Below are positions 12,883-23,388 of a DNA stretch of 32,000 nucleotides, piece by piece; within the stretch, counting starts at the first letter, position 1, and every line of letters begins with the position of its first letter. A program made the translations under genes and the position numbers. Source of the DNA: Candidatus Baldrarchaeota archaeon (GTDB taxonomy: Archaea > Asgardarchaeota > Baldrarchaeia > Baldrarchaeales > DXJG01); contig DXJG01000001.1 in assembly GCA_019056805.1 (NCBI GenBank), positions 30,001 through 62,000 of the forward strand, in the 5' to 3' direction. Below the pieces are notes generated by a model. It did not search any database and had not been told where the DNA came from. It was given only the letters and a program-made list of their open reading frames with translations.

Positions 12883-14315
12883 TTATTTTTTAAGACTACA
12901 GTATTCTCGAATATTAATGTACTCGTAGGCATCGGTTAGACTATCGAAACAGTAGTGAACTTTTTGGAAGGCTTTTCTAAATTCGACAACATCTTTAGCA
13001 ACATCTTTGGGATTCTCTTCATTAAATACGATTCTTTTAATAAATTCTGCTATTTCCTCCATGTCGGATTCTTTCATTCCTAATCTAGTAACTTCACTAA
13101 CTCCTAGACGAATACCTCCAGGTCGTTTATAATCTCTTCCAACTCTTTTGTCCCATGGAAGCAAATTCCGATTAATTATAATGTTGGCTTCCTCTAATTT
13201 TTTCTCAACTGTCATACCGTCCTTCAGCGGTGTTTCACTAATGTCTACGAGAATCGTATGTGATTCCGTAAATCCTTTATGTTCAGCGAGAACCTTAAAC
13301 CCTCTTTCGTACAAGGCTTGGCCTAAGGCTTTAGCGTTTTTAATGATTTGACCGGCATACTCGCTACCAAAAGCAAGCATCTCTGCAAAGGCTACAGCTT
13401 TTGGTAGCAGCAGAATTATCTGCTGCTATTCCCAGCAACTAGGTGCAAATGATGATTGCTCATGGTAGACGGGAAAGCTGCTTTTTTGAGTTCCTCAGCA
13501 TATTTGCTATGCGAGAGGACCGTTCCTCCTTGTGGTCCTGGCAATGTTTTGTGTGTACTTATCGTGAAAACGTCCGCCCCTTCTCTTAAGGGGTCTTGGA
13601 ATTTTCCACCGGCAATAAGTCCTGCAACGTGTGCTCCATCGAAGTGTATATATGCACCGATTTCATCTGCAATTTCTCTAATTTCTTTTACTGGTTCTGG
13701 AAATAGAAATACGCTGGCTCCCATTATGAATAATTTTATATGTTTTCCTTCCTTTGCGAGTTTTTTAACTCGTTTTGCTGTTCCATCTACATCGATGTTC
13801 ATTTCTTTCTCGTCAAAGGCAAAATAGTGTACTTTTAAGCCCCTGACTTTCCCCGCCGTGCCCCAGAGTTTTTTCTTTGCATAGCTTATGTGGCCGCCCG
13901 AGGGAATTGAAATACTCATTATATGATCTCCAGGTTCGGTAAAAGCTGAATATACTATTAAATTTGCAATCACTCCGCTTATGGCGCGGACATCAGCAAA
14001 TTCTGCTTTAAATAATTTTTTAGCTAACTCAATAGCTATTTCTTCTACTTGATCTATATAGATACATCCAGCATAAACGCGTTCGCCGGGCCAACCTTAC
14101 CGGTCCCAGTTTAACTGGGACTTTCGGCGTATCTGTTTCCGAAATCGCTGCATAAACATTCTCGAACTGCTGGACTTGGAATGTTTTTCCGACCCAGCCT
14201 TCTATGCTGGGTTTTCGGAAGCTATTAGTGGAATTGTGCTTCGGAACCACTGATGATGTTCTTTTAATAGTTCAAATATTTTATCGTAGTATTTCTTTGC
14301 TTCTTGTTCTTCCAT
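12883..14315 (-). CDS. glyA: Serine hydroxymethyltransferase; 4 exons (14315-14214, 14185-14123, 14096-13429, 13399-12883), 449 aa after splicing
   Basis: LIASEN, RYAEGWPG, GGHIS, DGAHVAGL, STHKTLPGPQGG, SNHHLH, GIRLG. 1433 nt minus 83 nt of introns = 1350 nt. SD GGAGGG upstream of ATG 14315. Confidence 0.93.
13400..13428 (-). other. Relaxed BHB intron 3 of glyA (29 nt)
   Basis: 9-bp stem AGCAGCAGA/TCTGCTGCT, helix TGGG/ACCA with one G.A mismatch; excision gives GGG AA|A GCT (AGKA). Confidence 0.8.
14097..14122 (-). other. BHB intron 2 of glyA (26 nt)
   Basis: Helix GCCG/CGGU, bulges AAA/AAG, 7-bp stem GTCCCAG/CTGGGAC; excision gives GCC GAA|GGT TGG (YAEGW). Confidence 0.9.
14186..14213 (-). 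other. BHB intron 1 of glyA (28 nt)
   Basis: Helix TCCG/CGGA, bulges AAA/AAA, 7-bp stem ACCCAGC/GCTGGGT; excision gives TCC GAA|AAC ATT (SENI). Confidence 0.9.
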
Positions 14316-18903: not shown

Positions 18904-19331
18904 GAGCTTCCCTCCGAATTTAGCAAGGAGGGAAACAAGAACAAGAAATATAAATTTTTCATAGATAGATATTTACATCTACGTTGGAAAAGATGACATA
19001 AAACTACATAAATTATTAAATCTATCTAACATTTGTAAAAATATTTTTTGTAAAAGAAAATATTTTATTATATTTCCAAAATATAGTGCAAGTTTCAAGA
19101 ACTTAACTCGTAACAAAGTGATTGATAAAAATCGACTAACTTCAAATCTCTGAATAGCCAATATAAGATAAAAATCTAGCAAATATCAATAAAAACATCT
19201 AGAAACAATAGAATAAAGATCCAACGTCGCAACTTCCATTTTTTTTAACCCAATAAATATAAATAAACACGTATAGTACAACATATCAACAAGAACTTAA
19301 ATGAGAAAAAACGTCTAAAGAGGGAAAAAGA

Positions 19332-19942
19332 ATGAAGGAGAAAGGAAAAATAATAGAAATACGAAGTCATGGTCGAGGTGGACAAGGTGTGGTTATTTTT
19401 TCTGAACTCTTGGCAAAAGCTGCATATTTAGATGGCTATATGGCGCAGTCGTTCCCATTTTTCGGCGCAGAAAAGGCAGTTCTTCTCTGAAAGGACTGCC
19501 TCTGCAGAGGCGTGGAGCCCCCTTAATGGCTTTCACACGAATTAGTGATAAAGAGATTTTGTTAAGAAGCCAAGTTTATAATCCTGATATCGTTGTTGTT
19601 TTGGACCCAGTTATCTTAGAGCTAGTAAATGTCACTGATGGATTAAAAGCTGATGGATGGTTGATTGCAAACACTCCAAAGAAACCAGAAGAACTTGGTT
19701 TAAACGGGTCTTTTAAAATCGCAACCGTTGATGCTACCGGCATTGCATTGGAATTAAATCTAAAAGTTGCAGGTTTCGCTGTAGTCAACACACCGATGTT
19801 AGGAGCGTTTTCCAAGGCTACGAAATTAGTGTCACTTGAATCGGTCAAAAGAGTTATTTTAGAGGAATGGAAAGGTGAACTAGCGGAGCTAAATGCCAAA
19901 GCAGCTGAGCTAGCCTTCGAAAAAACTATTGTAAAAGTTTAG
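19332..19942 (+). CDS. porG: 2-oxoacid (pyruvate-type):ferredoxin oxidoreductase gamma subunit; 2 exons (19332-19472, 19508-19942), 191 aa spliced
   Basis: HGRGGQG, FGAE|RRGAP, NTPMLGA. 611 nt minus 35 nt = 576 nt. Confidence 0.92.
19473..19507 (+). other. Canonical BHB intron of porG (35 nt)
   Basis: Helix GCAG/CTGC, bulges AAA/AGA, 11-bp stem; excision gives GCA GAA|AGG CGT (AERR). Confidence 0.92.
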
Positions 19943-20659: not shown

Positions 20660-21589
20660 TTACTCTGTCTCTATCATTTTTGCTATGTTTTTCCAGTTTT
20701 CATCTACCCACCTTTGGATTTCTTCTATATCTTTGTCTGTCAATCCTCTGAATCTTCCTTGAAGTTTTAAGTATTCTTCAACCGGTTTTCTCTTGCTGGG
20801 ATCTAGGAATCTTTTACTTGGACCTGATAGTTTGAATTTTCCATGATCAATCTCATATAGTATCCATAGACCTGTTTCTACTGCAAGTTTAGACATCTTT
20901 ATTGTTAGTTTTGAGTCATATCGCCATCCAGGTGGACAGGGTGATAGTATATGTATGTATCGTGTGCCTTCTCCTTTCATCTCTTTAGCCCTTCTTACTT
21001 TTTCATATAGATCCTTTGGGTATCCCGGAGTTGCTGTTGCAACGTATGGTATGTGATGAGCTGCCATAATCATTGGCATGTCTTTTTTATGTTCTTTTTT
21101 ACCTAGTATTGGGGTGGTTGTTGTTATTGCTCCATATGGCGTTGCCCCGCTTCGTTGGATCCCAGTGTTCATGTACGCTTCGTTGTCGTAACATATGTAT
21201 ATGAAGTCTGTTTTTCTTTCTGCTGCTCCTGAAAGGGCTTGGATTCCTATATCTGCTGTTCCTCCGTCTCCAGCCCATCCTACAACTGTGATATCCTTTT
21301 TTCCTCTAGCTTTTAGTGCTGCTACCACGCCCGAAGCTGCAGCCCCGGTTGCTTCAAAAGCCATATTTAACACTGGTACACCTATGCCTGATCTTGGATA
21401 CAGTCCTTGGATAACTGCTGTGCAGCATGCTGGTATAACTAGTACTGTTTTCTTTCCTAGAGCTTTTAGTACATGTCTTAATGATAGTATTGCTCCACAT
21501 CCTGGACAGGCTGCATTTCCCGACATTACATATTCTTCTTCAGGTAGACCTAGTATTGTCACGTTTATCACCTCACTAATCCATACCAT
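20660..21589 (-). CDS. porB: 2-oxoacid:ferredoxin oxidoreductase beta subunit
   Basis: ACPGCG, GDGG (TPP binding), DNEAYMNTG, SPCP; the start may be GTG 21562. Confidence 0.92.
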   Translation of the reverse strand: MVWISEVINVTILGLPEEEYVMSGNAACPGCGAILSLRHVLKALGKKTVLVIPACCTAVIQGLYPRSGIGVPVLNMAFEATGAAASGVVAALKARGKKDITVVGWAGDGGTADIGIQALSGAAERKTDFIYICYDNEAYMNTGIQRSGATPYGAITTTTPILGKKEHKKDMPMIMAAHHIPYVATATPGYPKDLYEKVRRAKEMKGEGTRYIHILSPCPPGWRYDSKLTIKMSKLAVETGLWILYEIDHGKFKLSGPSKRFLDPSKRKPVEEYLKLQGRFRGLTDKDIEEIQRWVDENWKNIAKMIETE

Positions 21590-22770
21590 TCGGCTTCTTT
21601 TTCTAGTTGACCTGTTTCTATAATGTTGAATGCTGCTTCTATCATTTTTCTCTGGTCTTCTGGTTTAACGTCTCGTCCTCCGATTCCCATTATGAAGTTT
21701 AGTATTATTGGTCTTTTTTCAAGCTGGTATAGGGCTGATTCTATTTCTGTGGCGCTTATTCCTTTGTATCCGTAGCTGATGTTTCTATCTGCAACGACTA
21801 AAGCTTTCAGTCTCTTTGCGACCTCTCTAATTTCCTCGTCTGGGAACGGTCTAAACACTCTTAGCTTTATGGCGCCTACGCGGTATCCTTCCTCACGCAT
21901 TAAATCAACGACATACTTAGCTTGGGCAGCTAGTGCTCCCATGGAAACTATTGCAACCTCGGCATCGTCAACTTTATATTTTTCAATTAGGTCTCCATGG
22001 TTTCTACCGAATTTCTTTTCAAATTCTTTTGTAACCTCTTTGATTTTTCTTTTGGCGTTAAGGAGGGCTTGATGCATTAAATAACGAAATTCCATGTAGC
22101 CCACGGAGGCGTCTCCTCGAGGTTCTGGCCATACGATATTTCCATGTGTAACTGGATGATCCACATCTGTGATGTCAAAAGGTGGTTCATAGGGTGGTAG
22201 AAAGTCTTCGACCTCCTCTTCGCTTAAAACTTCTAATGGTTGTGATGTATGGCTTAGGATAAAAGCATCGCTACAAATCATTGCTGGCATTTTTACCTCG
22301 GGGTCCTCGGCAACTCTGTAAGCTTGTATAATTGTATCAAATATTTCTTGGTTGCTTTCCGCGTAAAACTGCATCCACCCTGTGTCACGTTGTGAAAGAC
22401 TATCTACATGATCAGACCATATGTTCCACGGTGGACCCATTGCTCTATTTACTACAGCCATGACTATGGGTGCTCTAGTTGCAGATGCCCAATGAAGCAT
22501 TTCATGCATTAAAGTTAGTCCGTGAGCTGATGTTGCTGTGAACGCCCTTGCTCCAGCCACTGACGCCCCTATACACGCCGCCATTGCGCTATGTTCGCTT
22601 TCAACCCTGATATATTCAGCTTTCATTTCCCCTCTCTCAATGAATTCAGAAATTTTTTCTATTATTGATGTTTGAGGCGTTATAGGGTATGCTGCAACCA
22701 CATCAACTTTTGCTGCTTTTGCAGCGTAAGCTGCGGAATAATTACCGGTTGTAATAATTATTTTGCTCAC
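21568..22770 (-). CDS. porA: 2-oxoacid:ferredoxin oxidoreductase alpha subunit
   Basis: YPITPQT, ESEHSA, LRVFRPFP. Confidence 0.93.
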   Translation of the reverse strand: MSKIIITTGNYSAAYAAKAAKVDVVAAYPITPQTSIIEKISEFIERGEMKAEYIRVESEHSAMAACIGASVAGARAFTATSAHGLTLMHEMLHWASATRAPIVMAVVNRAMGPPWNIWSDHVDSLSQRDTGWMQFYAESNQEIFDTIIQAYRVAEDPEVKMPAMICSDAFILSHTSQPLEVLSEEEVEDFLPPYEPPFDITDVDHPVTHGNIVWPEPRGDASVGYMEFRYLMHQALLNAKRKIKEVTKEFEKKFGRNHGDLIEKYKVDDAEVAIVSMGALAAQAKYVVDLMREEGYRVGAIKLRVFRPFPDEEIREVAKRLKALVVADRNISYGYKGISATEIESALYQLEKRPIILNFIMGIGGRDVKPEDQRKMIEAAFNIIETGQLEKEAEWYGLVR

Positions 22771-22789
22771 ATGCTCACCTCATTTTAGT

Positions 22790-23071
22790 TTAAAATTCTC
22801 TAACCATCTCTATGGCTTTTGCAGGACATTCTTCGGCGCAAATGCCACATCCTTTGCAGTAAACATAATCTATTTTTGGGCCTTCTTCCTTTGTGAATGT
22901 TATAGTCGCTTCTGGACAATATAACCAGCAAAGTCCACATTTAGTACATTTGTTTAAGTCAATTACCGGTTTTAGAGTTCTCCATGTTCCTGTTTTTCCC
23001 ATAGCACCTTTTGCTGGCTTTGATAGTGGAGTTGGTGGTATTTTTTTCAAAATACTCGTGTTTGACTGCAT
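22790..23071 (-). CDS. porD: 2-oxoacid:ferredoxin oxidoreductase delta subunit (2x 4Fe-4S)
   Basis: TGTWRT.KP, CTKCGLC..YCP, CKGCGICAEECP. Confidence 0.92.
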   Translation of the reverse strand: MQSNTSILKKIPPTPLSKPAKGAMGKTGTWRTLKPVIDLNKCTKCGLCWLYCPEATITFTKEEGPKIDYVYCKGCGICAEECPAKAIEMVREF

Positions 23072-23388
23072 TTCCCTCACTTCCAAGCGTATAAATAGCT
23101 TTTGCAATTGTCACAATATCTATTTATCTTTAAAACCTTACTATTTATATTTCATGAATATAGTCCCTCGAACATCTCTTTAGAAGCTGGTAGAACTTTA
23201 AAATAATCGAAGGTAGTTGTGAAATATAAATTAACATCAAAAAGCCCGTAACGGGTTACATACTCACGTTGTTTCCCTAATTGACATAATATATTGTTAT
23301 CACAAATTTTTTAAGTAATAATATACTTAACCTTTTAAGTCACCGGTCAACTGACCGGAGTCAGAGAACAATGAGAGAGGTGTTCTAA

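Follow-up and report, generated by a model that had tools for sequence, protein, structure and literature searches.

A probable BHB intron within the coding sequence of porG in an Asgard archaeon of the class Baldrarchaeia

How can a subunit of a core energy-metabolism enzyme be made when its gene is read as two separate frames? The question is raised by porG in the window (the whole stretch of 32,000 nucleotides of Candidatus Baldrarchaeota DNA analyzed here, to which all positions given without a contig or locus name refer). The ATG at 19332 on the forward strand opens an ORF that encodes 47 gamma-subunit residues and then meets a UGA at 19488-19490, which limits the unspliced product to 52 aa, and the remainder of the family domain lies in a second ORF, in another frame, at 19526-19942. 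Once positions 19473-19507 are removed, a 190-aa protein is obtained with the junction GAA/AGG (a slash marks the junction here and below), and the motif F-G-A-E/R-R-G-A-P is restored. A first-pass annotation, made from the letters alone, had placed a 35-nt insert at these positions, and its coordinates and sequence are as described there. The features of the gene are as follows.

19320-19324, forward strand: putative SD-like GAGGG, read in the sequence, 7 nt before the porG start codon
19332-19472, forward strand: porG exon 1, 47 codons (M...FFGAE), dN/dS 0.03-0.13
19473-19507, forward strand: candidate 35-nt BHB intron, whose removal restores the frame and FGAERRGAP
19508-19942, forward strand: porG exon 2, 144 codons and a stop, ending in IVKV, dN/dS 0.03-0.10

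The family profiles locate the break to the residue. Exon 1 accounts for positions 1-32 of PF01558 and exon 2 for positions 33-173, and in TIGR02175, NF006321, NF040683 and NF010632 the break falls at 41/42 (exon 1 covering positions 1-41 of TIGR02175 and NF006321), with no position lost or repeated. Exon 2 alone (positions 42-175) scores 151 bits against TIGR02175, for which the cut-off is 81.1, and the two exons together span positions 1-175 of 177, which places the joined product within the PorC/KorC gamma family. The expected restoration of the motif is thus borne out both by the junction and by the continuity of the Pfam and NCBIfam profiles. By homology, porG is the gene for the gamma subunit of a four-subunit 2-oxoacid:ferredoxin oxidoreductase of the pyruvate/2-ketoisovalerate type. 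Upstream of it, the block TAAAGAGGGAA around GAGGG is identical in two genomes of the same genus.

The insert and its borders can be drawn as a bulge-helix-bulge (BHB) structure, the shape of a tRNA intron, in which the exon and the intron each contribute one strand of the central helix. Its parts, in the order of the transcript, are listed below.

19463-19466, forward strand: 5' strand of the outer exon-exon helix h, weak, pairing with 19509-19512
19467-19470, forward strand: 5' strand of the central helix H, GCAG, exonic, pairing with 19502-19505 at a probability of 0.98-0.99 and invariant in seven orthologues
19471-19473, forward strand: 5' bulge AAA, a 3-nt bulge in the minimum-energy fold, predicted cut between 19472 and 19473
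19474-19501, forward strand: inner hairpin h', 11 bp with one U.G pair (stem 19474-19484/19491-19501) and a 6-nt loop (19485-19490) that holds the in-frame UGA
19502-19505, forward strand: 3' strand of the central helix, CUGC, intronic, invariant in seven orthologues despite saturated synonymous sites
19506-19508, forward strand: 3' bulge AGA (AUA in relatives), predicted cut between 19507 and 19508; the codon formed is AGG (AGA in relatives), both Arg

The BHB cutting rule has no free parameter, since each 3-nt bulge is cut after its second nucleotide. The central helix consists of four Watson-Crick pairs, GCAG/CUGC, and the partition function gives both this helix and the inner stem a probability of about 0.99 and predicts a 3-nt bulge of A residues. 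Within the run of four A residues the register of the 5' bulge is ambiguous (0.38 versus 0.61), and the correct codon, GAA, arises only from the canonical register with its 4-bp helix. For the 71-nt region, the folding energy is -27.2 kcal/mol (z = -2.3), a value equaled in 3 of 200 shuffles. The outer helix, in turn, is made of two C-G pairs, one G-C pair and one G/G mismatch (G/A in relatives, where one of the C-G pairs is U.G); its probability in the thermodynamic ensemble is close to 0, and the exons are paired differently on this side in the minimum-energy fold. With this weakness, only the 5' site has the canonical form of the motif, and the 3' site is relaxed. Measured against the strict hBHBh' criterion, by which both flanking helices have at least 2 bp, h' has 11 bp and h is mismatched and nearly absent from the ensemble, and the porG motif therefore fits the relaxed rather than the strict BHB form. 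Sequence and fold both bear out the 4-bp helix and the 11-bp stem with one G.U pair that had been proposed, and the description of the motif as textbook holds for the drawing and for the 5' site, but not for the weak outer helix and the 3' site. Because both the outer helix and the exonic strand of the central helix encode protein, their invariance is uninformative on structure.

To judge how often such a motif would arise by chance, we scanned both strands of the genome, which comprises 1.92 Mb in 18 contigs and is 91% complete, under strict conditions: a central helix of 4 bp between bulges of 3 nt, 8 bp or more in the inner stem, no more than 8 nt in the loop and a degree of outer pairing. 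Across these 3.84 Mb, the scan returned 69 matches, or about 50 places after shifted registers were collapsed, most of them AT-rich and with many G.U pairs. With about 50 places genome-wide, a match at the exact nucleotide that repairs the motif is expected by chance at about 1e-5 per site. An error of assembly is ruled out: DNA contigs of two other studies span the insert without differences, and five metagenome contigs from relatives also have an insert at this site. The sequencing runs listed as containing this DNA are hydrothermal, subsurface and marine metagenomes, with no RNA run among them. A search with blastn-short found no second copy of the 35-nt insert in the genome, which rules out a repeat or MITE element.

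The same insert occurs at the identical site in seven distinct sequences of the genus (two genomes and five metagenome contigs, with 80-97% protein identity). Its length is 35, 34 or 33 nt, and each version carries an in-frame stop; the 33-nt inserts preserve the frame, yet stop it with a TAG or TAA. In all seven orthologues, including those with 33- and 34-nt introns, the canonical cuts produce E/RRGAP. Approximately 190 more distant homologues (at most 66% identity) have no insert here and are read in a single frame; they come from a set of 60 related genomes, 80 metagenome loci and 80 species-representative genomes. The presence of the insert in every sequence of the genus, together with its absence from the distant homologues, indicates that the intron is fixed in the genus and absent outside it. 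In a collection of 5.8 billion proteins, every relative with at least 80% identity (38 sequences in four clusters) is the 138-aa truncation, and no full-length relative above 66% identity, whether spliced or intron-less, was found in that collection, an absence that does not imply an absence of splicing.

The pairing is conserved as well as the site. In a structure alignment of the seven sequences, 92.9% of pair cells are standard, compared with 32-52% when the 3' partners are slid, and none of 500 shuffles reached the covariation score. In four pairs of the stem both partners have changed (A-U/G-C/U-A has become G-C/A-U/C-G, for example), and across the orthologues the paired cells amount to 97% in the inner stem and 75% in the outer helix. 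These compensatory changes go back to few independent events, in essence in two to three clades, and three of the four pairs involved lie side by side; the covariation is good evidence for the hairpin, not overwhelming evidence.

The exons evolve as parts of one working gene. Pairwise Nei-Gojobori estimates put dN/dS at 0.03-0.13, whether taken over exon 1, over exon 2 or over the whole gene, and dS between the two main clades is 1-2 or saturated. No further stop or frameshift was found in the exons of the seven orthologues, and RRGAPL, the six codons that separate the intron from the internal ATG (19526), have changed mostly at synonymous positions. This combination of purifying selection and a conserved RRGAPL argues against two other readings of the locus, a gene split into two polypeptides and a pseudogene.

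In the first of these, the 52-aa polypeptide and a 138-aa one begun at the ATG at 19526 would assemble without splicing, and the hairpin would be a terminator or a regulatory element. Both ORFs are open, the internal ATG has an SD-like GGAG 8 nt upstream, and public gene calls annotate exactly these two pieces. Such a division, however, would cut ERRGAP, the most conserved motif of the family, in two, and would leave RRGAPL untranslated, although it is conserved in the frame of exon 2. The internal ATG is a GTG in one relative, and the BHB geometry (a 4-bp helix, 3-nt bulges and frame-restoring cuts) at three different lengths would go unexplained. We therefore regard a split gene as improbable.

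Whether porG could be dispensable depends on the other oxidoreductase genes. Near it, on the opposite strand, lie three genes that most likely encode the rest of the same enzyme.

20660-21589, reverse strand: porB, beta subunit
21568-22770, reverse strand: porA, alpha subunit
22790-23107, reverse strand: porD, delta subunit

All three are full-length in Pfam and NCBIfam, in agreement with the first-pass statement that only the gamma subunit is interrupted. The porDAB cluster (20660-23107) is 0.7 kb from porG, with a glycosyltransferase gene between them. The genome encodes five POR_N alpha genes and five gamma genes; the other four gamma genes each lie within about 2 kb of an alpha gene of their own, and the porA described here is the only alpha gene that no other gamma gene adjoins. 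Since the other gammas are paired with their own alphas, the porDAB cluster has only the interrupted porG nearby, and it is most likely this gamma that serves the porDAB enzyme. The beta subunit scores above the PorB cut-off as well as the VorB-type one, so that the substrate may be either pyruvate or 2-ketoisovalerate.

These neighborhoods also bear on the possibility that a palindromic element inactivated porG and that its place in the porDAB enzyme is taken by another gamma paralogue. The genome does contain four intact ones, and the unspliced reading does end after 52 aa. Nevertheless, both exons have stayed open, with the low dN/dS given above maintained across lineages whose synonymous sites are saturated, and none of the seven orthologues has acquired a second lesion. 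The insert, having no other copy in the genome, does not belong to a repeat or MITE family. The paralogue scenario that the first-pass annotation had named, along with unspliced transcripts, as refuting its reading is made unlikely by the pairing of each paralogue with its own alpha gene, and a pseudogene is, in our judgment, very improbable.

The least credible alternative is translational recoding, in which ribosomes would bypass the 35 nt or shift frame without any cutting of RNA: a stable hairpin and an in-frame stop right after the take-off region resemble the layout of phage T4 gene 60, where ribosomes hop over a segment of the mRNA, yet the take-off codon GAA has no matching landing codon (CAG or CAU precedes AGG/AGA), the nearby GAG would be a landing site in the wrong frame, the gap varies between 33, 34 and 35 nt with the BHB geometry and not codon matching conserved, and frameshifting cannot remove 11-12 codons from a protein that matches its profile without extra residues.

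Removal at the RNA level is the reading that we prefer. It presupposes splicing enzymes, and in particular the weak closure on the 3' side means that the 3' site needs an endonuclease tolerant of relaxed motifs. The genome encodes two EndA paralogues. The best alignment of the first (184 aa) is to the alpha subunit of the Aeropyrum pernix heterotetramer (3p1z_B, E = 1e-44); it keeps the catalytic Tyr, His and Lys, and it aligns without a gap across what we take to be the Crenarchaea-specific loop region. The second (178 aa) is without the catalytic His, as expected of a structural beta subunit, which it appears to be. RtcB and archease are both encoded as well. Asgard archaea have been described to possess (alpha-beta)2 endonucleases with a loop that gives broad specificity (PMC5829648), and heteromeric endonucleases have been linked to relaxed cbf5 motifs (PMC2738675); the two EndA paralogues fit both the published Asgard enzyme and this link.

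Taken together, the exact repair of the profiles, the conservation of site and structure, the selection on both exons and the encoded enzymes lead us to infer excision, and we consider it highly probable that the 35 nt at 19473-19507 are a BHB intron of the porG pre-mRNA, removed at the RNA level. Synthesis of the enzyme very probably requires the porG mRNA to be cut and its pieces rejoined. As known from tRNA and cbf5 splicing, the transcript would fold so that the exonic GCAG pairs with the intronic CUGC between two flanking 3-nt bulges. A heterotetrameric (alpha-beta)2 endonuclease would then make one cut per bulge, leaving 2',3'-cyclic phosphate and 5'-OH ends, and RtcB, assisted by archease, would ligate the exons to GAA/AGG and would probably circularize the intron. 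The 190-aa protein would come solely from spliced mRNA, and unspliced mRNA would yield the 52-aa fragment. The intron itself would have been gained in the ancestor of this genus of Baldrarchaeia and retained since.

Other coding sequences of this genome contain similar candidates. The gene for SHMT, glyA, has a 26-nt BHB intron at 14097-14122 of the window on the reverse strand, with GCCG and CGGU as the central helix, AAA and AAG as the bulges and an 8-bp stem; the junction reads FGNRYAE/GWPGERVYAGC, and the downstream exon starts at position 51 of the SHMT profile. Three introns in glyA had also been proposed from the letters alone, as had the location of this gene on the strand opposite to porG; the BHB geometry and the Pfam exon coordinates confirm one of the three, on the reverse strand. 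A further candidate break in glyA lies near 13380-13416. In infB/aIF5B, a 33-nt BHB intron at C10:39163-39195 on the forward strand (equivalent to L203:264-296) separates the P-loop exon (positions 4-27 of the GTP_EFTU profile) from the sequence read as REAGGI/TQHIGA; the Pfam coordinates are consistent with it, and at minimum energy it folds into a clean hBHBh' whose outer helix has 3 bp. The strict scan also identified a 32-nt BHB intron in pyrG at C9:155012-155043 on the reverse strand, with the junction KIDP/YLNVDPGT. Common to porG, glyA, pyrG and infB are a GC-rich 4-bp helix, A-rich bulges that mostly end in A and a perfect stem of 8-11 bp.

How many such introns the genome holds is a different matter. 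A loose BHB motif combined with the merging of adjacent ORFs gave 698 matches genome-wide, compared with 649-699 when the cuts were shifted by 1-2 nt; showing no excess over the shifted cuts, this census is useless for counting, and we give no total. The strict GC-rich hairpins do stand out, with five matches versus one to two in the shifted controls. Additional candidate hairpins that are GC-rich and have BHB geometry are located at C8:26960-26990 (forward strand), C17:116257-116285 (reverse), C11:45511-45537 (reverse), C5:1042-1071 (forward) and C18:59863-59920 (forward).

The sister genus offers a second case in the same gene. In Candidatus Baldrarchaeum yapensis, which belongs to the same order, porG is intact at codon 47 and has a different BHB intron, of 28 nt, at about codon 141 (L097:1791-1818, junction PVLN/TPMLGAF), with CCUC and GGGG as the central helix, AAA and AUU as the bulges and a 9-bp stem. 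Two intron sites in sister genera indicate that porG gained introns twice.

The best-known counterpart of these introns is that of the cbf5 pre-mRNA in Crenarchaeota, found in Aeropyrum, Sulfolobus and Desulfurococcales (Watanabe 2002; Yoshinari 2006; Yokobori 2009, PMC2738675). Like the porG intron, it is a short BHB-type intron within a coding sequence, gained in particular lineages, often with a relaxed motif and in hosts with a heteromeric (alpha-beta)2 enzyme. The present case differs in its host gene, porG, in its phylum, Asgard (Baldrarchaeia), in that splicing is deduced here from DNA, and in the occurrence of several introns in one genome, with a second, independent porG site in the sister genus. 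The porG intron does not belong to the cbf5 intron lineage, as the host gene is another; it is the same kind of intron in another family. In this genome, cbf5 itself is uninterrupted, matching TIGR00425 positions 6-319 in one open frame at C10:25263-26207 on the forward strand.

BHB introns are very abundant in the tRNA genes of some Asgard classes (PMC11291895; bioRxiv 10.64898/2026.10.13.758758). These share with the porG intron a 4-bp helix between 3-nt bulges, half of which is built by the exon, as well as the size range and the presumed enzymes. The exon context is what sets porG apart: it is a translated mRNA, in which the frame must be restored and from which unspliced RNA gives a truncated product. 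With ARAGORN, only 18 tRNA genes were detected in this 91%-complete genome, 12 of the 18 with introns. So few detections suggest that numerous tRNA genes here are heavily interrupted, as has been published for other Asgard classes; probably, the majority have introns at non-canonical positions and hence go undetected.

In Haloferax volcanii, the 5' UTR of HVO_1309 contains a BHB intron whose processing was shown in vivo and in vitro, and the study of 2020 that reported it named cbf5 as the only coding example known (PMC7714728). Among the papers searched, too, cbf5 of Crenarchaeota is the one archaeal coding sequence reported to need splicing by the endonuclease, and HVO_1309 is the only other archaeal mRNA substrate (PMC7714728). 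It resembles porG as an mRNA substrate of the archaeal splicing endonuclease, and it is unlike porG in that the intron lies in the untranslated leader, the coding sequence is whole and the host enzyme is a homodimeric alpha'2. For Asgard archaea, Baldrarchaeota included, mRNA introns are not reported in the papers searched, which deal with tRNA introns only. By comparison with these systems, the porG intron would follow the mechanism of the cbf5 and tRNA introns, and it stands out for its Asgard lineage, its housekeeping host gene and the evidence for repeated gain. A looser parallel exists in eukaryotes, where the HAC1/XBP1 mRNA is cut by Ire1 and ligated by RtcB in animals or by Trl1, in the cytoplasm and under the regulation of stress. 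In outline, it is like porG a small mRNA intron bounded by stem-loops, with a protein endonuclease, a tRNA ligase and a change of frame; it is unlike porG in its nuclease, Ire1, in its recognition motif and in its regulation by stress.

Read in this way, the porG case would add a BHB intron that is obligatory and stable over evolution, in a gene of core energy metabolism from an Asgard archaeon. Together with glyA, pyrG and infB and with the second porG site in the sister genus, it suggests that mRNA splicing by the tRNA machinery may be routine in the closest prokaryotic relatives of eukaryotes, which bears on the origin of split genes and of the need to separate translation from RNA processing. 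A bolder proposal is that the introns of porG, glyA, pyrG and infB, genes of central metabolism and translation in which they all lie within roughly the first 50 codons, form a common post-transcriptional gate tying synthesis to EndA and RtcB; we hold this to be unlikely, and if it were true, translation must not outrun splicing in a close archaeal relative of eukaryotes. The four introns are found 33-56 codons past the upstream stop, near the 5' ends of their genes, a pattern that, with n = 4, may reflect chance or the bias of the filter.

Introns of this type also affect how genomes are annotated. Gene callers return porG as fragments of 52 and 138 aa, and metabolic reconstructions can therefore misscore such genes as missing or broken. 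In public collections, porG appears as two separate unnamed proteins of these lengths (19332-19487 and 19526-19939), and the 52-aa piece is clustered under a 1265-aa ENA protein as representative, apparently an oddity of gene calling.
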